DNA of 64,000 nt from positions 23,997 through 87,996 of the forward strand of contig CAZAAL010000003.1 of assembly GCA_964483315.1 (NCBI GenBank), in the 5' to 3' direction. Shown here piece after piece: positions 7,421 through 38,038 of this stretch. The notes under the pieces were generated by a model, which saw only the letters and a list, made by a program, of their open reading frames with translations, had not been told where the DNA came from and ran no database searches. The translations under genes and the position numbers were made by a program. Source of the stretch: an uncultured Candidatus Saccharibacteria bacterium (GTDB lineage: Bacteria > Patescibacteriota > Saccharimonadia > Saccharimonadales > UBA10212). Each line of letters begins with the position of its first letter. Position 1 is the stretch's first letter.

Positions 7421-8131
7421 ATGTGGGTAAAGGGTATAGATGTGATTGAGGTAAAAAATTTAACAAAAATTTATGGCAAAGGCGAAAATCAGTTCAAAGC
7501 ATTGGATGCTGTAAATTTTCGGGTTGATTTAGGCCCGACGGTTGCGATTATTGGCAAAAGTGGTAGCGGAAAAAGTACATTGATGCATTTAATGAGTGGG
7601 CTCGATAAAGCCGATAGTGGTCAAGTCATAGTAGCCGGACAAGATATTCAAAAAATGAGCCAAAAGGAAGCTGATAGGTTTCGAGCTACAGACATGAGCT
7701 TTATTTTTCAGTCTTTTTTTGTTGAGGCAAATCAAACATGTTTTCAGAATGTGAGCCTTCCGCTTGAGATCGCGGACGTCCCGCGTACCGTGCGAGCTAA
7801 AATGATAACTACCGCGCTTGATAAAGTGGAACTGTCCGATAAAATACACGAGCCGTCAGTAAATTTAAGTGGCGGTCAAAAGCAACGCCTAGCAATCGCA
7901 CGTGCAATCGTAGCTAGTCCAAAAATTATTTTTGCCGATGAGCCGACCGGTAATCTAGATAGCTTAACCGGTGAAAAGGTCATGGATTTATTATTCGGCA
8001 TAAGTAAAAATCAGGGAACAACTTTATTTATCGTTACACATGATGAGGACTTGGCAAAAAAATGCCAAGTTCAAATAAAGCTGCACGATGGCAAGGTAGT
8101 TGATGTTAAAACAAAGGCTAAAAACCGATGA
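7421..8131 (+). CDS. ABC transporter ATP-binding protein, MacB/LolD-like
   Basis: GKSGSGKST Walker A, LSGGQKQR signature and FADEPTGNLD Walker B. The start could instead be GTG 7442. Confidence 0.85.
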   Translation: MWVKGIDVIEVKNLTKIYGKGENQFKALDAVNFRVDLGPTVAIIGKSGSGKSTLMHLMSGLDKADSGQVIVAGQDIQKMSQKEADRFRATDMSFIFQSFFVEANQTCFQNVSLPLEIADVPRTVRAKMITTALDKVELSDKIHEPSVNLSGGQKQRLAIARAIVASPKIIFADEPTGNLDSLTGEKVMDLLFGISKNQGTTLFIVTHDEDLAKKCQVQIKLHDGKVVDVKTKAKNR

Positions 8132-9513
8132 AAAGTTTTGATATTGCTCGTCGAAGCGGAAGAAGCTTGCGTGCAGCCAAGCTTCGCACTATTTTGACGG
8201 CACTGGCTATAGCAGTTGGTGGCTTTACACTTGTTTTAACGCTTGCAGCCAGTAACGGCCTAAGAAACTATACCGATAAACTCATTAGTTCTAACTACGA
8301 TCCAGCAGAGTTATTTGTTGGCCGAGACCCTGAAGTTTCAAATAATGGCACGCCATCAGATACACCAAAAGAATATGACGAATCTGTCTCCTCACTTGAT
8401 ATTGGTGGTGGTGCCTCAGGTAGTCTGCAGATAAAAAGGGTAACGGCTGATGATGTTGAACAACTAAAAAAACTTGAATATGTTGAAAATGTCCGCGAGA
8501 GTTACCAGATAAATGTTCGCTATGTAACCCGTGATGGCCAAAAAAAATACACAGCCAGTGCCGAAGCATATAATCCAGCTCAAAAACCAGAAATTAAAGC
8601 CGGAGACTTGCCAGAAACAGGTGATATCTCGCAGGGTAAAGTATTGCTACCAGATAACTATTTGAGCGTTCTGGGTTTTAATAGTCCAGATGAAGCAATC
8701 GGACAACAAATTAGGATCACTGTTCAAAGGCCTTTTTCAGTATCAACACTCCAACAACTACTATCGACTAATCAAAGTTTAGATAGCATCGACCCCAATG
8801 ATGTAAAACCAGAAGAAAAAACCTATAGCTTCGAAGTAGTTGGTGTAACCAAAAAACCAGCGACAAGTCTCAGTTTTGGTGTGTCTCCAATTTTACTGTC
8901 GCAAACAGACGCTAAAAGTTTATATGATATTACAACCCAAGGCACCGCCGATTATGAAAAATACCTGTTTGTTTATGTAAGGGTCAAAGATGGCACCCAG
9001 CAGGCAAATATTGATTCGGCCAAATCCAATTTAATAGCCAAGGGCTACTATGTGCAAAGCACAAAAGATGTTCAGCAGGCAATCAACCAATTTGTAAACA
9101 TTTTAACAATTATGGTGGGAGTTTTTGGTTTGATAACAATCATTGCGTCTGTTTTTGGAATAATCAATACCCAGTACATTAGCGTTCTTGAAAGAACTAG
9201 AGAAATTGGTCTAATGAAGGCGTTGGGTATGCGCAGAAAAGATATTAATAAATTGTTTATTTTTGAAGCAGCTTGGATTGGGCTAATGGGCGGAATAATT
9301 GGATCTATCATAGGTATCTTACTGGGGATTGGTCTTAATCCGTTAATAACCAAACAGCTTGAGCTTGGTGAAGGCGAAAGCCTTTTAGTCTTTAAGCCGG
9401 TCCAGGTTCTTTTATTAATTTTATTCTTAATGCTTGTGGCAACACTCGCAGGGCTACTGCCAGCCCGTAAAGCTAGCAAGCTTGATCCGATAACTGCACT
9501 AAGGACAGAATAA
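8128..9513 (+). CDS. ABC transporter permease, FtsX/MacB-type, with a large extracytoplasmic domain
   Basis: N-terminal TM helix, about 270 aa of extracytoplasmic domain, then a C-terminal FtsX-like 3-TM bundle ending LPARKASKLDPITALR. ATGA overlap with the upstream ATPase gene. Confidence 0.8.
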   Translation: MKSFDIARRSGRSLRAAKLRTILTALAIAVGGFTLVLTLAASNGLRNYTDKLISSNYDPAELFVGRDPEVSNNGTPSDTPKEYDESVSSLDIGGGASGSLQIKRVTADDVEQLKKLEYVENVRESYQINVRYVTRDGQKKYTASAEAYNPAQKPEIKAGDLPETGDISQGKVLLPDNYLSVLGFNSPDEAIGQQIRITVQRPFSVSTLQQLLSTNQSLDSIDPNDVKPEEKTYSFEVVGVTKKPATSLSFGVSPILLSQTDAKSLYDITTQGTADYEKYLFVYVRVKDGTQQANIDSAKSNLIAKGYYVQSTKDVQQAINQFVNILTIMVGVFGLITIIASVFGIINTQYISVLERTREIGLMKALGMRRKDINKLFIFEAAWIGLMGGIIGSIIGILLGIGLNPLITKQLELGEGESLLVFKPVQVLLLILFLMLVATLAGLLPARKASKLDPITALRTE

Positions 9514-11282
9514 TGATTGCTAAAAAAATATTATTGAGTTTTTTTGTTCTTTTTGCAGGATTTATATATTTTCTTTCGCCGGCTGTCTATGCAGATGTTA
9601 ATGACTTTGTAATTACGGATTTTTCGGCGGACTATTATTTATCAAAAGATAACCCACATGGTTCATTGAACGTTAATGAACTTATATGGGTCAACTTTTC
9701 TGATAACAATCATGGTATATTACGGGCTATACCAGACGTATATAATGGCCACAACCTTAATGTTGAGGTCCTTAAAGTTACAGACCAAAATGGTAAAATT
9801 ATTCCTTATACGACCTATAAATCAAACGATAACCTAGTTTTAAAAATTGGAGACCCAGACAAAACTGTAACTGGCTTGAATGGATATAAAATTGACTATA
9901 GCTTAGTGGGGCCGATTAGTTTTTATGGTGATCATGATGAGTTTTTTTGGGATGTAAATGGCGACCAGTGGCTACAGCCCGCTAAAAAAGTCACGGCTCG
10001 TATTCATGTTCCGCAGTCGCTGAACAACCAATTATTACCTGCCCAAAAATGCTTTGCCGGAGTTTATGGGCAGTCAACTTATCCATGTACTATAGATAGG
10101 TCCAACCAAGCTGACGGGGCAACAACAATTACGGCTGTAACCGATAACTTAGAGCAATACGAAACGCTCAGTTTTGTAATTGCCTTTAAAGCCAACACGT
10201 TTGCGCCGTATACCTGGAAAGATGAGCTGTTAGAACACAAAAGGGATCTTATATTTGCACTTGCTTCACTGATTTTAGCTAGTTTTGCTTCAGTAATTTG
10301 GTGGCGTAATGGCAAAGACTACAAGGGTAGGGGAGTTTTAATCGCAGAATATAAACCTCCAAAGGGTGTAGATCCGCTAAGAGCAGGTATGTTGCAAGAT
10401 TATAGGTTGGATGGTCGCGACGTTACAGCCGAAATTATTAATCTGGCTGTAAAAAAGTACATCACCATAAACGAAGAACTTCAAAAAAAGGCTATATTTT
10501 TTAATTCAAAAAAGTATAGTTTAGAGCTAAAAATCACTGATACATCTAAGTTAAGCGAATATGAGGATCGATTAATCAGGGCGTTATTTAGCACTTTTAG
10601 TGTTGGGAGCAAGTTGGAGCTTGGCGAATACAACCCAGAACTCTCAAAAGCTGTAGTAAAAATTAGTGACGATTTAGGTGCAACAATGGCTAGTGAGGGA
10701 TATTATGAAAAAAATCCTAAAAAATTTGTTGGCGGCAAGATGGGGGGATTAGTATTTTTATCAATTGTTCTTACATTTTTAGCATTTTTCTTAAGTGCCC
10801 CGATTGGCGGATTTATTGGTTTGATCAGTATTTTAGTCATATCAATGCTTATAACTCTTATGCCTAGGCGCTCACGTTTGGGCGTATCAGCCCATGAAAG
10901 TCTAAAGGGTTTAAAGTACTACATTGAAGTTGCCGAAAAAGATAGGATTAGAAAACTGCAGTCAGCCGGAGCAAAGTATGCCAAATCCGCTCATGAGCCA
11001 ACTAAGACGGTCGAGTTATTCGAAAAACTTTTGCCGTACGCCATAATATTTGGGGTTGAACGATCATGGGCAAAACAATTTAAAGATATATATACAACTC
11101 AACCCGAGTGGTATCAGGGTAATATGGGCACCTTTAACTCCGTTATTCTAACTAATCACATACTTTCCAGTACCTCAGCTGTTAACTCCTCATTTGCTAG
11201 TCCTTCAAGTAGCGGAGGCTCTGGATTTTCGGGTGGAGGCGCTGGCGGAGGCGGCGGAGGCGGAGGCGGTGGTGGCTGGTAA
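9513..11282 (+). CDS. DUF2207-like membrane protein with a C-terminal poly-Gly tail
   Basis: Signal/TM N-terminus, extracytoplasmic beta-rich domain, several TM helices, and a tail SSGGSGFSGGGAGGGGGGGGGGGW as seen in DUF2207 proteins. Start overlaps the stop of the permease gene. Confidence 0.65.
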   Translation: MIAKKILLSFFVLFAGFIYFLSPAVYADVNDFVITDFSADYYLSKDNPHGSLNVNELIWVNFSDNNHGILRAIPDVYNGHNLNVEVLKVTDQNGKIIPYTTYKSNDNLVLKIGDPDKTVTGLNGYKIDYSLVGPISFYGDHDEFFWDVNGDQWLQPAKKVTARIHVPQSLNNQLLPAQKCFAGVYGQSTYPCTIDRSNQADGATTITAVTDNLEQYETLSFVIAFKANTFAPYTWKDELLEHKRDLIFALASLILASFASVIWWRNGKDYKGRGVLIAEYKPPKGVDPLRAGMLQDYRLDGRDVTAEIINLAVKKYITINEELQKKAIFFNSKKYSLELKITDTSKLSEYEDRLIRALFSTFSVGSKLELGEYNPELSKAVVKISDDLGATMASEGYYEKNPKKFVGGKMGGLVFLSIVLTFLAFFLSAPIGGFIGLISILVISMLITLMPRRSRLGVSAHESLKGLKYYIEVAEKDRIRKLQSAGAKYAKSAHEPTKTVELFEKLLPYAIIFGVERSWAKQFKDIYTTQPEWYQGNMGTFNSVILTNHILSSTSAVNSSFASPSSSGGSGFSGGGAGGGGGGGGGGGW

Positions 11283-11294
11283 GCCAAAAAAGTT

Positions 11295-11789
11295 ATGAAA
11301 AGAATCAAAAAAACTGACAAGCAATATTTAAGAACCATTATCTTTGGGGTAGAGGACAGTCTAGTCTCAACTACTGGATTAATCGCAGGCATCGGTGTTG
11401 GTTCGGATAACAAAAAATTTGTTTTACTGGCAGGCACGGTGGCTATTTTTATTGAAGCAATATCAATGGGGGCAGGTGAATACATTAGTGATGACGGTGT
11501 AAATGACGACAAAAAACACCATATTCCCATAATTAGCGGTGTACTGATGTTTTTATCATATATGCTTGCTGGGCTGTTACCGCTGGCACCAATTGTCCTT
11601 GCCTCTTACCCAGAATCATTAGTTTATGGCGTGATAATTGCATTCACAGGCTTATTTTTACTAGGCTGGGCCAAGGGTAAGATCCTAGGAACATCACCAA
11701 TCAAAAGTGGGCTTAAAGTACTAGCAATCGGGGGGATAGCGACTCTAGCCGGTATAACAATCGGTAGTATGTTTGAGGTAAACGGCTAA
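11295..11789 (+). CDS. VIT1/CCC1 family (iron/manganese) transporter-like membrane protein
   Basis: FGVEDSLVSTTGLIAGIG and IEAISMGAGEY blocks resemble the VIT family. Four to five TM helices. Confidence 0.65.
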   Translation: MKRIKKTDKQYLRTIIFGVEDSLVSTTGLIAGIGVGSDNKKFVLLAGTVAIFIEAISMGAGEYISDDGVNDDKKHHIPIISGVLMFLSYMLAGLLPLAPIVLASYPESLVYGVIIAFTGLFLLGWAKGKILGTSPIKSGLKVLAIGGIATLAGITIGSMFEVNG

Positions 11790-12234: not shown

Positions 12235-12696
12235 CTAAAATGGACCGTGACCTCCACGGGGTCCACCATGACCCTCTATCTTTGGCATAACCTCATCTAG
12301 GTTAATGCCGTTTTCATCGGCCCATTTCTTGAATTCATCACGAACTGCTTCACGCTGTTCGCGGTTTTCGGCCCTTTGATCTTGCCGATTCTTACGCATT
12401 TCTTCCAGCTTTGCAATCAACTTGGTCTTTTGATCTTCAGTTATTTTTCCGTTTTTAACAGCTTGATTTAACTTTTCTTCAAGTCGTTGTTTATGATCCG
12501 CTTGATGCTCAGCACGTTGCTCATTAAATACTTTTTGAACCTCATCTTTATTTAGGTTAAACTTTTCAGCAATTTTATCGACAACCGGTGGGTACTTTTC
12601 ATCGGCTGAATCAGCCAACGCAAGTCCGCTTAGCGCTCCAGCTCCAACTACTCCTGCAGTAACCGCTAGGGCTACAAAACTTTTGTTTACTTTCAT
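12235..12696 (-). CDS. Secreted charged helical protein with a CpxP/Spy-like LTxxQ-type motif
   Basis: Signal peptide (MKVNKSFVALAVTAGVVGAGALSGLALA). Lys/Glu/Gln-rich helices and an ITEDQKTKL motif. Divergent from the two-component operon. Confidence 0.5.
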   Translation of the reverse strand: MKVNKSFVALAVTAGVVGAGALSGLALADSADEKYPPVVDKIAEKFNLNKDEVQKVFNEQRAEHQADHKQRLEEKLNQAVKNGKITEDQKTKLIAKLEEMRKNRQDQRAENREQREAVRDEFKKWADENGINLDEVMPKIEGHGGPRGGHGPF

Positions 12697-12816: not shown

Positions 12817-13503
12817 GTGAGAATTTTAGTTGTTGAAGATGAATACAAAATTGGCCAGGCTCTAAAAAAGGGTCTTAGCCAGGAAGGCTATGCAGTTGAC
12901 CTAGAATCCGATGGTGATAGTGGGCTTCAATCCGCAACAACAGGCCACTATGATCTGTTAATCCTCGACAGAATGTTGCCCGGGCAGTTTGATGGAGTCC
13001 AGATTGCCCGATCTATGCGCGCAAGTAATATCGATGTACCTATACTAATGCTTACAGCTAAGGATGCGATATCTGATAGAGTCGAAGGGCTAGATTCAGG
13101 CGCTAATGATTACCTTGTAAAACCATTTGCGTTTGATGAATTGTTAGCAAGGGTAAGGGCTTTACTTAGAAAAACAACACCACATAAAACAAGTAACATA
13201 AAGTATGCCGATCTTACCCTAGACACAAAAAACAAAGTTGCTGTTCGTGGGGGTAAAACGATTGATTTAACCGCTAAAGAATATGCGCTTTTGAGCTATT
13301 TTATGCATAATCCGGAGATGGTTATTAGTAAAGATCAGCTTATCGAACATGTTTGGGATTTTGATGCCGATATACTACCAAATAATGTCGAGGCGTATGT
13401 TGGATATTTACGCTCTAAAATTGAGCAACCATTTAAAGATTCGCCAAAACTGATTCACACCCGGAGAGGCTTTGGTTATATGTTTAGTTTGGAGAATCGT
13501 TAA
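12817..13503 (+). CDS. OmpR/PhoB-family response regulator
   Basis: Receiver domain (ILVVEDE, LLILDRMLPG, MLTAK, YLVKPF) plus a winged-helix output domain (LTAKEYALLSYF...RRGFGY). GTG start. Confidence 0.9.
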   Translation: MRILVVEDEYKIGQALKKGLSQEGYAVDLESDGDSGLQSATTGHYDLLILDRMLPGQFDGVQIARSMRASNIDVPILMLTAKDAISDRVEGLDSGANDYLVKPFAFDELLARVRALLRKTTPHKTSNIKYADLTLDTKNKVAVRGGKTIDLTAKEYALLSYFMHNPEMVISKDQLIEHVWDFDADILPNNVEAYVGYLRSKIEQPFKDSPKLIHTRRGFGYMFSLENR

Positions 13504-14529
13504 GTGTTTAATGATGCTGCTAAAAAGCTTGCACTTATATATGTTTGTGCATTAATGCTTGTCAGTATGACTGCCAGTTTTGCGATGTATAGAATGGCAG
13601 ATAGTCAATTCGAACGAGGACTAAGACGTCAGCAGGAATCAATTGTAAACCGTCAAGCTCCTCGTAATTTGCTACTTAACGAGCTCGATAGATTGCGAAC
13701 TCAATATCAAAATGAAGCTCGAGCCGGTTTGCTTAGGGGGCTTTTACTTTTTAATCTAAGCGTACTGATAGGTGGTGCATATCTTAGCTATGTCTCGGCA
13801 AAGTTTACCCTTAGACCAATCAAAGAGGCAATGGAAGCTCAAAGTCGCTTTACCGCAGATGCTAGTCACGAACTAAGAACGCCTCTAAGCGCTATGAAAA
13901 GCGAGATCGAAGTAACTCTAAGGTCAAAAAACCTTAGTACTGCCGAAGCCAAGGAGGTCTTAAAAAGTAATTTAGAAGAAGTAAATAATCTAGAACAACT
14001 AACCTCGGGTCTTTTAACTTTAGCAAGAGCGCCCGAACAAAACATTAAGCTTACAAAAACTGACTTAGCAAATGTATTTTCATCTGTAAAAAGACAATCA
14101 ATTAAAAGCGCAAAAAACAAGCAGATTAAATTAAGAATTGAAAAACCAGTTTCAATATTTGTCGTGGCGCACGAGCCTACTCTGGTTAGCTTAATATTAA
14201 TTTTGGTAGATAATGCAATTAAATATAGTGAGCCAACTAAAATTATTGACGTAGGATTTGTAAGTTCAAAAGATATCACACAGATCTTTGTAAAAGACCA
14301 AGGGGTTGGTATAAGGCTGGCTGATCAGCAAAAAATATTTCAAAGATTTTATCGAGCGGATGCTTCAAGGACAAAATCAAAACAGGTCGGTGGCTATGGG
14401 CTTGGGTTAGCGATTGCGCAGACAATAGCAACTCAACATCACACAAAAATTCTGTTGGATTCTGAGTATAAAAAGGGCAGTGAGTTTAGCTTTGTTCTAA
14501 AAAATTGGTCAAAGGATGATAAAATATAG
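13504..14529 (+). CDS. Sensor histidine kinase (HisKA + HATPase_c)
   Basis: Two TM helices. H-box FTADASHELRTPL, N-box LVDNAIKYS, G1 DQGVGI and G2 GGYGLGLAIA. GTG start directly after the regulator stop. Confidence 0.85.
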   Translation: MFNDAAKKLALIYVCALMLVSMTASFAMYRMADSQFERGLRRQQESIVNRQAPRNLLLNELDRLRTQYQNEARAGLLRGLLLFNLSVLIGGAYLSYVSAKFTLRPIKEAMEAQSRFTADASHELRTPLSAMKSEIEVTLRSKNLSTAEAKEVLKSNLEEVNNLEQLTSGLLTLARAPEQNIKLTKTDLANVFSSVKRQSIKSAKNKQIKLRIEKPVSIFVVAHEPTLVSLILILVDNAIKYSEPTKIIDVGFVSSKDITQIFVKDQGVGIRLADQQKIFQRFYRADASRTKSKQVGGYGLGLAIAQTIATQHHTKILLDSEYKKGSEFSFVLKNWSKDDKI

Positions 14530-14536
14530 CCTAACT

Positions 14537-15022
14537 ATGGCAAAGACTACGGCACATAAACGTAAAAAAAAGGCTTCAGTAAAAGCAAAAAGTAAGCCCG
14601 CTGTTAGCAAGCCCATTCATCAAGAGGCAGCTAATGAAGTTCAGTCAGTTGAACAAGCTGATTTAAAAACCGAAAGAACTTGGGTTGATGCAATAATTAT
14701 TTTTGTATTTGTTGGATTAGCTCTTGTAGTGGCGTTTATGGCCACCAATAACAATGATGGTTATCAGCTTGATGACAACCAAAAATCTGGCGGTGACAGC
14801 CAGGGCATAGGTATAGGAGTGGATTCAGACAGTGATCTTGGTCAACTTGGCCAATCAAGCGGCGCAAGTCCTGGGCAGACTCAGGGGGATTCGAGTTCAA
14901 ATCCTCAAAATCCGGCTGGCTACAACCAAGGCTCTTCAGGTGAGTTCCAGAACACCGTAGATAAATGCTCATATCAGCAATTTGAACAATCGCCTCTAAG
15001 CCCAGAGTGTATCAACCGCTAG
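14537..15022 (+). CDS. Hypothetical single-pass membrane protein with a Gly/Ser/Gln-rich ectodomain
   Basis: Basic N-terminus, one TM helix, a low-complexity region, and two C-terminal Cys. An alternative start at 14516 would overlap the kinase gene. Confidence 0.45.
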   Translation: MAKTTAHKRKKKASVKAKSKPAVSKPIHQEAANEVQSVEQADLKTERTWVDAIIIFVFVGLALVVAFMATNNNDGYQLDDNQKSGGDSQGIGIGVDSDSDLGQLGQSSGASPGQTQGDSSSNPQNPAGYNQGSSGEFQNTVDKCSYQQFEQSPLSPECINR

Positions 15023-15083
15023 TGTTGTTAGGTTGCTAAAGATAGGATAGAATTAGATTAAATTAATTGGCGAGGAATAAGAC

Positions 15084-15914
15084 GTGTCAAAATTGACTGC
15101 TAAATTACCATTTTCAAAGAAATCTAAAACATCAAAAATTACATTTGCTAGTTTAAAAAAGTACAATCTTGTTGCTGCTGGACTACATTTTATACAAGGC
15201 GTATTGGTGCTTGTGCTAGCGGATCCAAATAAGGGCATCCAACCAGTCACAACAAATTACTTAACTACAGACACATTAGCGACTGAGGCTACGGGGTCAC
15301 CTGTTTTAGTCCAGGGATCGACATTGCTCTTTGATGTTAACCTTGCATATTTAGTAGCTGCTTTCTTTTTTATGAGTGCGATAGCTCATGTTGTTGTTGC
15401 GTTTTGGTATCGAAAACGCTATGAAGCTGATCTTAAGATTGGTGTAAATAAGGCTAGATGGGTTGAATATTCAATCAGTGCTAGCACTATGATGATTGCG
15501 ATTAGCTTACTTTCAGGCATTTTTGACTTATCAACACTATTAATGATTTTTGCCCTAACAGCAATAATGAACATCATGGGCCTTTCAATGGAATTGTTCA
15601 ATCGTGGCGCAAAACAGCCAAACTGGTTTAGTTATTGGGTTGGAGTTCTAGCCGGGATAATTCCTTGGGTAGTTTTTGCCATCTATGTATGGGGTGCTTC
15701 GGTTTACGGTAGTGGAGTTCCAACCTTTGTTTATTGGATATACCTAAGCATATTCTTATTCTTTAATTGTTTTGCGGTAAACATGTGGCTTCAATACAAA
15801 AAAGTGGGTAAATGGTCAGACTATCTGTATGGCGAGAGAACTTATATAATCCTTAGTTTAGTTGCTAAATCAGCACTTGCGTGGCAGGTCTTCGCCGGGA
15901 CTCTCCGCCCTTAA
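15084..15914 (+). CDS. Heliorhodopsin
   Basis: Seven TM helices. Blocks RWVEYSISAS (TM3 Glu), GIIPWVVF, FLFFNCFAV and GERTYIILSLVAKSALAWQVFAGTL (TM7 Lys) closely match heliorhodopsin 48C12 as I recall it. GTG start with a GAGGA SD 8 nt upstream. Confidence 0.85.
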   Translation: MSKLTAKLPFSKKSKTSKITFASLKKYNLVAAGLHFIQGVLVLVLADPNKGIQPVTTNYLTTDTLATEATGSPVLVQGSTLLFDVNLAYLVAAFFFMSAIAHVVVAFWYRKRYEADLKIGVNKARWVEYSISASTMMIAISLLSGIFDLSTLLMIFALTAIMNIMGLSMELFNRGAKQPNWFSYWVGVLAGIIPWVVFAIYVWGASVYGSGVPTFVYWIYLSIFLFFNCFAVNMWLQYKKVGKWSDYLYGERTYIILSLVAKSALAWQVFAGTLRP

Positions 15915-15920
15915 TTAATA

Positions 15921-16628
15921 ATGAAGATACACAGGTTTTACGTTGGTGGACTACACGATAAGCGTGGGCCAGTTGAGCTTAGGCAACATATTTGGGTTCA
16001 TGATCCACACCTTTTGAACCAGTGGCTTAGGGTTTTAAGGTTAAGGTTGGGCGATCAAATTGAGTTGTTCGATGACAGCACTAAAACCGTACTTTATAAG
16101 ATAGACAAAATCGAGGAACTTTCTGTAGGGCTAAAATTAGTTACTGAGCTTCAGCCTACAATTCCCAAAAAACATATATATCTACTTTGGTCATTATTAA
16201 AAAAAGACAATAATGACCTAGTTTTGCAAAAATGTACAGAGCTTGGAGTCAAAAACTTCGTGCCAATTATAAGCCAAAGGACTGAAAAAACTGGTTTTGA
16301 TATAGATAGGGCAAGACGAATACTTATTGAAGCGTCAGAACAGTGTGGTCGGAGTGATATACCACACGTTCGGGAGCCGATTTTATTAACCGAAGCCCTA
16401 GATGAATATGCAAAATCAATCGATATTTACGTTGCCGACATGGCTGGTCAAGAGCAGATTTCACCTAGTGATTCAGTTGGCGTTTTAGTTGGGCCAGAAG
16501 GTGGATGGACTGATCAGGAAAAATCAGAATTTACGGCCAAAGGTATAAAACAACTAAGTATTCATGAGTTTACGCTTAGAGCCGAAACGGCTACTATAGC
16601 TGTAGTTTCAAAGATTATTTCGACATGA
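15921..16628 (+). CDS. rsmE: 16S rRNA (uracil1498-N3)-methyltransferase RsmE
   Basis: N-terminal HRFYV and PUA-like domain. SPOUT C-terminal domain with the GPEGGWT motif. Confidence 0.8.
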   Translation: MKIHRFYVGGLHDKRGPVELRQHIWVHDPHLLNQWLRVLRLRLGDQIELFDDSTKTVLYKIDKIEELSVGLKLVTELQPTIPKKHIYLLWSLLKKDNNDLVLQKCTELGVKNFVPIISQRTEKTGFDIDRARRILIEASEQCGRSDIPHVREPILLTEALDEYAKSIDIYVADMAGQEQISPSDSVGVLVGPEGGWTDQEKSEFTAKGIKQLSIHEFTLRAETATIAVVSKIIST

Positions 16629-17191
16629 TAAACACCATTGCACTAAATAACTTTCAAAATCTTGACGATCAAGAAAAAAGAAAAAACTTTGAGATATTTT
16701 TAGAAGCCAACAACTTCAGCAAACTATCAAATAATGAATATTCATTCAGTGGTCGCATCGGTCAATTTGACTTTGTACTTCGGCAAGGTCAAGATTTCTT
16801 TGGCAATAGCGAGCTTGCATTTATTATCGACGATATAAAGTTACCTCACGTTATTTTAAATTCAAAAAATAACAAGCTACAAAACATGGAGCATATGTCG
16901 TACAAGTATCTTGAGCTCGAGCTAGAAGGTAGCTTAAAAGATCAGTACACTATTTTATTAAATCGTGACAAAAATATTGAGGTATATGACTATATTAGCC
17001 CTGATACAATACAGATTCTACTTGATGATCCAATTTATGACGTGGAAACCTTTGGCACTAGAATCGCTTTTTTGTATGATGACTTGATTATTGAAAATAA
17101 CACAAAACTTTCAAAGATGTTCGATACCGCCGAAAAATTCATAGTACAGTTACTACAACAACATAATCCTAAGTATAAGCTGGTAGAATAA
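16625..17191 (+). CDS. Hypothetical protein
   Basis: 188-aa ORF with an ATGA overlap to rsmE. I recognise no motif. Confidence 0.45.
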   Translation: MINTIALNNFQNLDDQEKRKNFEIFLEANNFSKLSNNEYSFSGRIGQFDFVLRQGQDFFGNSELAFIIDDIKLPHVILNSKNNKLQNMEHMSYKYLELELEGSLKDQYTILLNRDKNIEVYDYISPDTIQILLDDPIYDVETFGTRIAFLYDDLIIENNTKLSKMFDTAEKFIVQLLQQHNPKYKLVE

Positions 17192-30509: not shown

Positions 30510-31064
30510 ATGGACGAACAAAATAACACACCCCCACAACAAACACCTCCGCCACAAGAACCAGTGGTCGAGAATCAAAATTCATCAAATTTGGAACAGC
30601 AGGATACAGTACCAGCTACCGAACCATCGCCAACAGTCGCTGATACTCCAAGCGATCAATCAGTTGCCACTGCACCGGCTCCAGCATCAAGTGGCACAAA
30701 AAAAGTCTTACTTGTAGAAGACGACAACAATTTAGCCGATGTTTATACCACAAGACTACAGGCAGAAGGGTTTGATGTTAAAAGAGTTCCAAATGGCGAA
30801 GATGCACTTGCGTCCGCCCTCGAATATAAACCAGACTTAATACTCCTTGACGTTATGATGCCAAAAGTTAGTGGTTTTGACGTACTAGATATTTTAAGAA
30901 ATACCCCAGAAACAGCTAAAGTAAAGATTGTTATGTTAACGGCTCTTGGGCAAGATTCTGATCAACAAAGGGCAAAAGACCTAGGTGTTGATGATTACCT
31001 AGTTAAATCGCAAGTAGTAATTGCCGACGTAGTCGACAAAATCAAATTCCACCTCGGTATGTAG
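30510..31064 (+). CDS. Single-domain response regulator with a Pro/Gln-rich N-terminal extension
   Basis: About 65 aa of low-complexity N-terminus, then a canonical receiver (LLVEDD, LILLDVMMP, MLTA, YLVKS). Confidence 0.8.
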   Translation: MDEQNNTPPQQTPPPQEPVVENQNSSNLEQQDTVPATEPSPTVADTPSDQSVATAPAPASSGTKKVLLVEDDNNLADVYTTRLQAEGFDVKRVPNGEDALASALEYKPDLILLDVMMPKVSGFDVLDILRNTPETAKVKIVMLTALGQDSDQQRAKDLGVDDYLVKSQVVIADVVDKIKFHLGM

Positions 31065-31766: not shown

Positions 31767-32039
31767 TTACTCTACGGTTACTTCGACGCGGGGGACTGTG
31801 CGTCCACTAAATCTTTTTACCCTGCGAGGTACAAATTTAACAATGCCATCACGGCTAGCGTGAATAGTAAAATCTCGGCCCATAAGCGTACCAACGCCTG
31901 GGCGTTTTGTCATGCCGACTTGGCGGACGATAATATCACCAGTTTTAACTTTTTGGCCACCCCAAACCTTAATACCCAGGCGCTGACCTGGACTATCATG
32001 TACGTTCTTACTTGAGCCACCGGCTTTGATCTTACTCAT
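31767..32039 (-). CDS. rpmA: 50S ribosomal protein L27
   Basis: N-terminus AGGSSKNVHDSPGQRLGIKVWGGQKV and overall sequence are typical of L27. Confidence 0.92.
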   Translation of the reverse strand: MSKIKAGGSSKNVHDSPGQRLGIKVWGGQKVKTGDIIVRQVGMTKRPGVGTLMGRDFTIHASRDGIVKFVPRRVKRFSGRTVPRVEVTVE

Positions 32040-37651: not shown

Positions 37652-38038
37652 ATGGCTCACATTTTATTAATAGAGCCAGATATGTTACTGGCAAATAGCA
37701 TTAGGCAGTATCTTAAGTCACTAGGTCATAGTTTGCAGTGGCGTTCGTCAGCCCAGTCAGCAATCAATGGAGCAGACGAGACGCTGCCAGACATTGTAAT
37801 TTTAGAACTCCAGCTACCTGGTCATAGTGGCATAGAATTTTTATACGAATTTAAGTCTTACCCTGAGTGGCAGGCAGTGCCAGTGATTATCTTAAGCACG
37901 CTTGATGAAAGCGAAATTGCTTGCTCAAGTATTTTACTTGGTCCACTCGATGTGGTGTCGTATCATCACAAACATTACACGAGCCTGCAACAAATTGCAG
38001 ACGCAGTCGATCAAGCTTTAGCCGTTGCTCAAAAATGA
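37652..38038 (+). CDS. Receiver-domain-like protein with Glu at the predicted phospho-acceptor position
   Basis: CheY-like pattern (ILLIEPD ... DIVILELQLPG ... VIILST ... K), but the beta3 position usually held by Asp reads Glu (ILELQLPG). Confidence 0.6.
   Translation: MAHILLIEPDMLLANSIRQYLKSLGHSLQWRSSAQSAINGADETLPDIVILELQLPGHSGIEFLYEFKSYPEWQAVPVIILSTLDESEIACSSILLGPLDVVSYHHKHYTSLQQIADAVDQALAVAQK

Follow-up and report, generated by a model that had tools for sequence, protein, structure and literature searches.

The stretch of DNA analyzed here, referred to as the window, is 64 kb of a Saccharibacteria genome, and our statements on genes that are absent from it cover this window only. Its forward strand carries a gene with a GTG start and a TAA stop that encodes a heliorhodopsin (HeR), a membrane protein that binds retinal and senses light, of 276 amino acids. 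An earlier reading of the letters made by a model, called the sequence-only reading herein, had proposed a 276-aa HeR at exactly the coordinates that we recovered (Table 1), and the blocks to which it pointed, GLHFIQ, AIAHVV, RWVEYS, and SLVAKSALAWQ, are all present in the translation. The neighbors that it had described are correct as well: genes for a response regulator (RR), a histidine kinase (HK), and a low-complexity membrane protein precede the HeR gene, which is followed by the gene for RsmE.

The protein was matched by the Pfam family PF18761 (Heliorhodopsin) with an E-value of 6.3e-88 and 294.6 bits (cutoff 26.7) over the entire profile (1-242/242), and by the NCBIfam equivalog NF038020, "heliorhodopsin HeR", with 297.8 bits (cutoff 100), again over the full profile (1-244/244). 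Given the latter match, the standard NCBI pipeline would name this gene without more analysis. Upon comparison with the sequences of solved structures, we found matches to TaHeR (6is6, E = 7e-70) and 48C12 (6su3, E = 3.7e-51), and in a MAFFT alignment the protein was 51% identical to TaHeR over 250 aligned residues and 45% identical to 48C12. An AlphaFold2 model built on 48 homologs had a mean pLDDT of 91.4 and a pTM of 0.84. It contains seven long helices as well as the beta-hairpin that typically joins transmembrane helices 1 and 2 (TM1 and TM2) in this family, with strands at residues 52-62 and 75-86. When the model was searched against the PDB with Foldseek, the top ten matches were all heliorhodopsins (TMt 0.84-0.90), and its superposition on TaHeR 6is6 gave a TM-score of 0.90 and a root mean square deviation of 2.1 Å. 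Type-1 rhodopsins, on the other hand, reached a TMq of merely 0.51-0.62 at 8-15% identity. Taken together, the profile matches, the likeness to TaHeR and 48C12, and the fold confirm the family assignment of the sequence-only reading: the window encodes a genuine, canonical heliorhodopsin.

The residues on which heliorhodopsin chemistry depends are in place. Alignment to 48C12 and TaHeR put the TM7 Lys, the TM3 Glu, and both His residues in register, an outcome that the sequence-only reading had anticipated. We counted conservation across the 120 closest database homologs of the window HeR. K262 is invariant (120/120), as are E128 and the adjoining W126 and Y129 (120/120 each), with R125 invariant or nearly so. 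Ser is found at position 258 in 116 of the 120 homologs; the TM7 motif of heliorhodopsins is SxxxK, as opposed to DxxxK in type-1 rhodopsins (PMC9166423). His occupies position 35 in 112/120 and position 102 in 118/120.

The lateral fenestration, also described as the carotenoid-binding site, could be traced by alignment as well. Residues Y184, V188, G191, F227, N228, and A231 align with F162, C166, G169, F206, N207, and A210 of 48C12 and with Y164, C168, G171, F203, N204, and A207 of TaHeR. Five of the six are thus identical to TaHeR (Y164, G171, F203, N204, and A207), and position 188 shows a conservative change from Cys to Val. Both G191 and F227 are invariant in the 120 homologs. A fenestrated group of HeRs has been delimited by two opposed aromatic residues at positions 162 and 206 of 48C12, a Gly at 169, and non-bulky residues at 166 and 210 (preprint 10.1101/2025.11.27.691015). 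Judged at the sequence level, the window HeR would belong to this group, with Y184/F227 as the aromatic pair, G191, and the non-bulky V188 and A231.

Table 1. Features of the HeR locus, in window coordinates.
Feature	Position	Strand	Basis or remark
Heliorhodopsin (HeR) coding sequence	15084..15914	+	ORF listing, Pfam, NCBIfam, PDB match, AlphaFold2 model
H35 codon, TM1 histidine	15186..15188	+	= H23 of TaHeR and of 48C12
H102 codon, TM2 histidine	15387..15389	+	= TaHeR H82, 48C12 H80
E128 codon, predicted Schiff-base counterion (TM3, RWVEYS)	15465..15467	+	= TaHeR E108, 48C12 E107
Lateral-fenestration (carotenoid-binding-site) residues Y184, V188, G191, F227, N228, A231	15633..15776	+	alignment
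S258 codon, Ser of the heliorhodopsin SxxxK motif	15855..15857	+	= TaHeR S234, 48C12 S237
K262 codon, predicted retinal Schiff-base lysine (TM7, SLVAK)	15867..15869	+	= TaHeR K238, 48C12 K241
Shine-Dalgarno GAGGA	15072..15076	+	read from the sequence; 7 nt 5' of the HeR GTG
Weak sigma-70-like promoter match, TTGTTA-17-TAGAAT (9/12)	15025..15053	+	within the 61 nt that precede HeR
Small secreted coiled-coil protein, divergent from RR	12235-12696	-	NCBIfam matches weak, sub-threshold
OmpR-type response regulator (RR)	12817-13503	+	Pfam; NCBIfam equivalog scores all below cutoffs
HisKA/HATPase histidine kinase (HK), two TM, minimal sensor, GTG start	13504-14529	+	Pfam; NCBIfam equivalogs below cutoffs
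Orphan 168-aa single-pass low-complexity membrane protein	14516-15022	+	no Pfam above cutoff, no NCBIfam family
RsmE 16S rRNA methyltransferase, 6 nt 3' of HeR	15921-16628	+	Pfam PF04452; syntenic housekeeping neighbor

TaHeR, from the Thermoplasmatales archaeon SG8-52-1 (6is6, 7u55, 7clj), is the best solved relative of the window HeR, and the five residues listed in Table 1 find their counterparts in it. The two differ in origin, TaHeR being archaeal and the window HeR patescibacterial, as well as in their tails and loops: compared with TaHeR, the window HeR has a more basic N-terminal tail with ∼12 extra residues, and its loops gain ∼8 residues in the TM1-TM2 hairpin and 4-5 between TM5 and TM6. 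The founding member 48C12 (6su3, 6su4, 6uh3, 9ljj) is more distant and its loops differ too. Nevertheless, all five residues are in register, the RWVEYS and SLVAKSALAWQ blocks are identical, and the structures superpose with TM-scores of 0.84-0.86. Both solved proteins have Cys where the window HeR has Val188.

As for the membrane orientation, residues 1-27 of the window HeR include eight Lys or Arg residues and no Asp or Glu, and the loops at 106-137 and 233-254 are rich in Lys and Arg as well. Going by the positive-inside rule only, this distribution is consistent with a cytoplasmic N-terminus and hence with the inverted topology of the family. HeRs have been reported to be restricted to monoderms (PMC8612252). 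We recognized no outer-membrane or lipopolysaccharide genes in the 64-kb window, which is too small to settle the envelope type, and peptidoglycan-synthesis (dcw) genes are present.

The GTG start of the HeR gene is well supported since a GAGGA Shine-Dalgarno sequence precedes it and its homologs have N-termini of similar length. The weak sigma-70-like site upstream is possibly the HeR promoter and is indistinguishable from chance by sequence: our promoter scan counted 18 sites of this kind in the region, and shuffled sequences gave 19.4 ± 4.6. With promoter counts at the chance level, we inferred operon boundaries from spacing only. The RR, HK, 168-aa, HeR, and RsmE genes are co-directional; RR and HK abut, HK and the 168-aa open reading frame (ORF) overlap by 14 nt, and the following gaps measure 61 nt and 6 nt. 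Between the RR and RsmE genes, the forward strand has no terminator-like site of more than three G-C pairs. Scans of the window for tRNAs and Rfam families gave no matches, and its coding fraction is 0.93 with our own ORF set.

The sequence-only reading had also noted that no blh or crt gene is visible near HeR. This was borne out when 60 of the window's 63 non-nested ORFs of at least 90 aa were scanned with Pfam; the other three are SerRS and SecA, both annotated with Pfam on an identical strain locus (L081; loci are denoted by L and a number), and a 90-aa ORF at 31767-32039 on the reverse strand. Among the scanned ORFs there was no BCD/Blh, RPE65, SQS_PSY, lycopene cyclase, CrtI-type amino oxidase, or polyprenyl synthase, and no type-1 rhodopsin (Bac_rhodopsin, SacR). 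Genes for retinal or carotenoid metabolism were likewise absent around related HeRs, as judged from six fully annotated loci, ten recurring neighbor clusters, and the top 25 neighbor families. Published work on the phylum agrees: no blh was found in rhodopsin-bearing Saccharibacteria genomes of 79-98% completeness, Saccharibacteria type-1 rhodopsins take up added retinal rapidly, and Actinobacteria hosts were proposed as its source (Jaffe 2022, PMC9296517). For HeRs of other organisms that have no retinal pathway, rapid binding of external retinal through an opening of the apoprotein has been described (PMC9296517), and TaHeR, whose host is said there to be without a retinal pathway, is one of those that bind it rapidly (PMC9296517). 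Since neither the window nor the published rhodopsin-bearing Saccharibacteria show a retinal pathway, the chromophore is most likely taken up from outside, be it from the host or the community, via the retained lateral opening between helices. The sequence-only reading had argued that retinal must come from outside the cell if the organism is an epibiont. That argument fits a Saccharibacteria-type host from the candidate phyla radiation (CPR), and an outside source has been published for rhodopsin-bearing Saccharibacteria, which are described as putatively episymbiotic (PMC9296517).

The relatives of the window HeR place it in the same group. At 60-72% identity, its closest relatives come overwhelmingly from metagenome-assembled genomes (MAGs) of Candidatus Saccharibacteria/Saccharimonadales. 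Dozens of such MAGs were found in our searches, several with the HeR already labeled "heliorhodopsin HeR", and the nearest species-level relatives are 70-72% identical. More distant relatives were found in Berkelbacteria, Dojkabacteria, and Kerfeldbacteria, followed by Chloroflexi, Actinomycetota, and Methanomassiliicoccales. Over ∼10 kb downstream, the order RsmE, PD-(D/E)XK nuclease, SerRS, HPF, and SecA is common to Saccharibacteria contigs, with SecA ∼70% identical; also encoded in the window are housekeeping functions, DprA, a coupling protein that resembles VirD4, and a dcw cluster. On these sequence comparisons, the assignment to a Saccharibacteria-type (CPR) reduced genome is sound. 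In one 70% relative (L122:5001-6784; GCA_964590725.1, CAZPWF010000003.1), two tandem HeR genes of 267 and 306 aa occupy the same syntenic slot and are followed by TrmA-like, RsmE, and PD-(D/E)XK genes.

We compared 80 genome loci by tblastn and ORF clustering, together with six further close relatives whose contexts were annotated with Pfam. A common backbone runs through ∼15 close relatives: GreA, LysRS, a MacB-type ATP-binding cassette (ABC) transporter, Zincin_1, HeR, optional TrmA-like or HAD genes, RsmE, PD-(D/E)XK, SerRS, HPF, and SecA. These ∼15 closest HeR relatives (59-72% identity; L001, L002, L004, L006, L009, L011, L012, L013, L017, and L122-L127) carry the backbone but no two-component system (TCS) upstream of HeR. 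The commonest occupant of that position is MsrA (PF01625), sometimes with a sortase. At least 11 close-relative loci (L001, L002, L004, L006, L013, L023, and L123-L127) have it within a few genes of HeR, in most cases as the first or second gene upstream. No MsrA was found with Pfam among the scanned ORFs of the 64-kb window, where the slot usual for MsrA holds the small divergent secreted protein, RR, HK, and the 168-aa ORF. This block from RR to RsmE recurs on independent assemblies from six sequencing runs and is therefore not an assembly artifact.

Elsewhere the TCS is seldom near HeR. Of the 80 loci, ∼8 have TCS genes at most 10 kb from HeR, and these are adjacent to it in one, the Patescibacteria MAG locus L032, whose HeR is 55% identical to that of the window. 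There, a small divergent protein, RR, HK, and HeR follow in the same order and HeR begins 10 nt past the HK stop; the downstream gene differs and there is no 168-aa protein. Found in two of roughly 90 loci, the RR-HK-HeR order is too infrequent to separate from chance. In a census of 113 immediate neighbors of Patescibacteria-type HeRs, no Pfam family occurred more than four times and HisKA was outside the top 25. A search of metagenome contigs with the HK returned a sole full-length RR-HK orthologue (L107; RR 60% and HK 42% identical), which has no HeR; the other 34 loci gave generic histidine kinases and were uninformative. We therefore rejected the TCS as a conserved HeR partner, as it is adjacent elsewhere only in L032. 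These observations argue against its being a conserved part of the HeR unit and identify it as a lineage-specific occupant of the slot. In this lineage, HeR itself has a fixed place in the chromosome, inherited vertically and surrounded by housekeeping genes, without a conserved adjoining partner gene.

Taken together, we consider it highly likely that this gene encodes a canonical, functional HeR that uses scavenged retinal and serves as a non-pumping, slow-photocycle sensor acting on a partner protein. All-trans-retinal would form a covalent, protonated Schiff base with K262, for which E128 would be the counterion, while H35, H102, and S258 would line a polar cavity. The retinal would enter from the host or the community through the lateral opening, and the slow-photocycle HeR would, by analogy with characterized members, alter the activity of a partner by direct contact, with no ions pumped. 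The evidence on which we draw comprises family, residue register, fold, conservation, synteny, and the lack of retinal genes in the window; from it we infer chromophore binding, an external retinal supply, and a sensory or regulatory role. AbHeR with glutamine synthetase, TfHeR with photolyase, and OcHeR with the OmrDE ABC exporter are reported to show light-dependent partner binding and modulation, which is the mode of action best supported for prokaryotic HeRs (PMC9529153, PMC9769723, PMC11109279). The HeRs measured so far absorb at ∼530-556 nm (PMC7807009).

Several points weigh against this interpretation. Both chromophore binding and the light response of the window HeR are predictions, and the literature that we searched held no report of an experimentally characterized CPR HeR. 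The sensor role is drawn by analogy with HeRs of Actinobacteria and Firmicutes, whose glutamine synthetase, photolyase, and heterodimeric ABC exporter genes are not adjacent to HeR here. The window does have an ABC transporter 5.5 kb from HeR (7421-9513); being of the MacB/FtsX type, it is no heterodimeric exporter. The absence of retinal genes covers 64 kb, and such a gene may lie elsewhere in the genome. The gene is intact and maintained, an identical HeR protein being found on contigs from six sequencing runs with up to 7 substitutions, all of them synonymous, yet this zero count of non-synonymous changes is partly built in, since exact identity of the protein was what these contigs were retrieved by. 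RsmE, to which no such selection applied, shows 19 synonymous and 0 non-synonymous changes among the strain variants at similar divergence. Lastly, RR-HK-HeR recurs in L032, where HK and HeR are only 10 nt apart and another gene lies downstream, and this speaks against the TCS as a purely incidental neighbor.

One rival proposal is that HeR is the light input of the adjacent TCS. In such an arrangement, loosely analogous to sensory rhodopsin II with HtrII, the RR, HK, 168-aa, and HeR genes would be co-transcribed, and HeR, once activated by light, would contact HK within the membrane, directly or via the 168-aa protein, and so set RR phosphorylation. The four genes do lie on one strand with tight spacing and with no intervening forward-strand terminator-like site of the strength given above, HK is a minimal sensor, and the gene order is kept in L032 despite an HeR that is only 55% identical. 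Two-component domains are also statistically over-represented near HeRs, including those of Patescibacteria (Bulzu 2021, PMC8612252). Nonetheless, we regard this proposal as quite unlikely. The ∼15 close syntenic relatives do without a TCS at HeR and 11 close-relative loci carry MsrA within a few genes of it instead, the L107 orthologue of RR-HK comes without HeR and is followed by an FtsX-type ABC transporter, and neither the census of 113 neighbors, with HisKA outside its top 25 families, nor the single adjacent case in 80 loci points to a lasting association. Moreover, the window is almost wholly co-directional from 12.8 to 31.8 kb with minimal gaps, so that co-orientation is hardly informative, and the 168-aa protein is missing from L032 and from every other HeR locus compared. 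The MsrA genes of the relatives raise a specific version of the sensory role, in which HeR would act in a light-triggered response to oxidative damage by raising or activating, for instance, methionine sulfoxide reductase. A role of this kind has been proposed for HeRs, including those of the CPR (Bulzu 2021, PMC8612252; Chiriac 2022, PMC9166423), and at least 11 close relatives have MsrA near HeR. For the window we deem it unlikely, as its 64 kb contain no MsrA and the slot is held by the two-component module; in addition, MsrA adjacency is confined to one clade of long synteny and may reflect common descent. To our knowledge, no experiment links any HeR to MsrA.

Two further readings depart from the sensor role altogether. 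HeR could be a light-driven or light-gated proton transporter like viral V2HeR3, or else a two-chromophore harvester with a scavenged xanthophyll antenna, both of which we hold to be highly improbable. A viral HeR does transport protons (PMC9448325), CPR bacteria have few sources of a proton gradient (PMC9296517), the fenestration motif is intact, and most HeRs have been argued to bind exogenous xanthophylls (preprint 10.1101/2025.11.27.691015). The viral ion-transporting subfamily, however, falls wholly within the group of HeRs that lack the motif (preprint 10.1101/2025.11.27.691015), which the window HeR has, and proton pumping in Saccharibacteria has been assigned to separate type-1 rhodopsins (PMC9296517, PMC9166423). 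The antenna proposal, for its part, builds on structure, docking, and sequence statistics, not on measured energy transfer in a prokaryotic HeR (preprint 10.1101/2025.11.27.691015). The window HeR is also closest to TaHeR and 48C12. In Pushkarev 2018 and Shihoya 2019, neither of these two proteins reportedly showed ion transport. At the far end of the scale, we see next to no chance that the gene is a decaying relic whose product stays a chromophore-free apoprotein in a host unable to make retinal. CPR genomes are under reductive evolution and the window shows no retinal pathway, both of which would suit a relic. However, the frame is intact with a good ribosome-binding site, the functional residues are conserved across the 120 homologs, the same locus is kept in many Saccharibacteria species, the strain differences are synonymous only, as they are in RsmE (19 versus 0), and a useless gene would probably not be kept in a streamlined genome whose coding fraction is 0.93.

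A bolder form of the kinase proposal would make RR-HK-(168-aa)-HeR, found here and independently in L032, a phototransduction operon in which HeR, carrying retinal from a host cell, gates the minimal-sensor HK by intramembrane contact. This we rate as very unlikely. If it were true, the output of HK would report on light and on the supply of retinal, the latter as a proxy for contact with the host, and the system would give an HeR its first defined signaling partner and a CPR epibiont its first described sensory pathway. If it held here, a link between HeR and HK would matter for the physiological role of heliorhodopsins; the comparative evidence argues against a conserved one. The loci of the window and L032 are nonetheless reasonable constructs for the HeR-histidine kinase hypothesis of Bulzu et al. 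2021.

As for the finding as a whole, every part of it has a direct precedent. In a survey of 1326 CPR genomes, 115 rhodopsins were found, of which 98 were HeRs, 80 of these in Saccharimonadia; SLVAK was among the commonest TM7 motifs and a sensory or oxidative-stress role was discussed (Chiriac 2022, PMC9166423). The window HeR shares family, class, and SLVAK with the Saccharimonadia HeRs and differs by its TCS at a place where relatives mostly have MsrA, sortase, or others. The SacRs of the same phylum likewise come without blh and are proposed to use retinal from co-occurring organisms such as Actinobacteria (PMC9296517), but they are type-1, DTS-motif outward proton pumps whose orientation in the membrane is opposite to that of HeR. 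Bulzu 2021 (PMC8612252) proposed an association of HeR with histidine kinases and listed Patescibacteria, and the same domains (HisKA/HATPase, Response_reg/Trans_reg_C) are near the window HeR too, but in this clade HeR-TCS adjacency is rare, being limited to the window and L032. RsmE, the TCS, and the 168-aa ORF are outside the ten neighbor groups of Cho et al. 2024. The finding of the sequence-only reading is hence correct but already known, given that Saccharibacteria HeRs, borrowed retinal, and HeR-HK proximity have all been published; what novelty is left resides in the RR-HK-HeR arrangement shared with L032. The window adds a Saccharibacteria lineage that keeps HeR at a conserved position despite extreme genome reduction and with no visible retinal pathway, and it supports the published view that these bacteria rely on other organisms for their chromophore. 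As CPR HeRs have no conserved neighbor, gene context alone will not reveal the partner.

The neighboring genes allow some further description. The 168-aa protein has a Lys-rich N-terminus, a TM segment at about residues 59-77, and an exterior rich in Gly, Ser, Gln, and Asp. In strain variants it keeps the same length with 5 synonymous and 3 non-synonymous codon changes. A BLASTP comparison of this protein with all HeR-neighbor proteins gave nothing below an E-value of 0.1. Two candidates for its counterpart were rejected: the ∼170-aa recurrent upstream protein of cluster c5 (8 loci) is soluble and unrelated, and the small c43 protein, for which two TM segments are predicted, is unrelated as well. 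The latter probably belongs to the DUF378 family, which two neighbors in the census match. As for the soluble protein of 160-178 aa, it belongs to no Pfam family and, in a more distant clade of Saccharibacteria, stands directly upstream of HeR on the same strand at eight loci (L035, L036, L038, L039, L040, L042, L045, and L046; for instance, L036:9385-9921), separated from it by 47-71 nt. It is preceded by a staphylococcal-nuclease homolog, and its synteny may be a matter of descent.

HK consists of TM1, a loop of ∼50 aa, TM2, and then HisKA, with no HAMP or PAS domain. Public gene callers start it at an internal ATG, which yields 320 aa and loses the first TM helix. As that helix is retained by the orthologues of L032 (325 aa) and L107 (336 aa), the better start is the GTG at 13504, directly next to the RR stop, from which HK has 341 aa. 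In L107 (5318-9314), a permease of the FtsX/MacB type and an ABC ATPase come after RR-HK, an order that recalls Bce-type TCS/ABC modules, and in the window the MacB-type ABC transporter lies 3.3 kb upstream of the TCS. The TCS may be tied to an ABC transporter or to envelope stress and not to HeR. Two receiver-domain proteins without an output domain are also encoded on the forward strand (30510-31064, 184 aa; 37652-38038, 128 aa), with no HK beside them among the scanned ORFs. As RR genes are fairly frequent in this small genome, incidental adjacency to any gene becomes more likely.

The small secreted coiled-coil protein encoded on the reverse strand is likely a regulatory target or an accessory of the TCS. 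It shares a KFNLNKDEVQ motif and a signal peptide with its counterpart in L032 (7727-8254, reverse strand), and both are divergent from RR. Its sub-threshold family hints include LiaX (E = 0.0035), and it is fast-evolving between strains, with 3 synonymous and 5 non-synonymous changes.

Upstream of this group, a DUF2207 membrane protein (9513-11282, forward strand) ends in a tail rich in Gly and Ser, in which 13 consecutive glycines precede a Trp (11200-11282), and an antisense poly-proline ORF opposite this tail (11156-11530, reverse strand) is almost certainly spurious. A 588-aa protein found directly upstream of HeR in L009, L011, L012, and L017 was considered as the equivalent of this 589-aa DUF2207 protein and rejected (BLASTP E = 5.4). 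Downstream of HeR, a 188-aa ORF (16625-17191, forward strand) overlaps the RsmE stop by 4 nt and matches no Pfam or NCBIfam family. It is polymorphic in presence or absence: the window and L083 have it, and in the strain variants L081, L082, L085, and L086 the PD-(D/E)XK gene directly follows RsmE.

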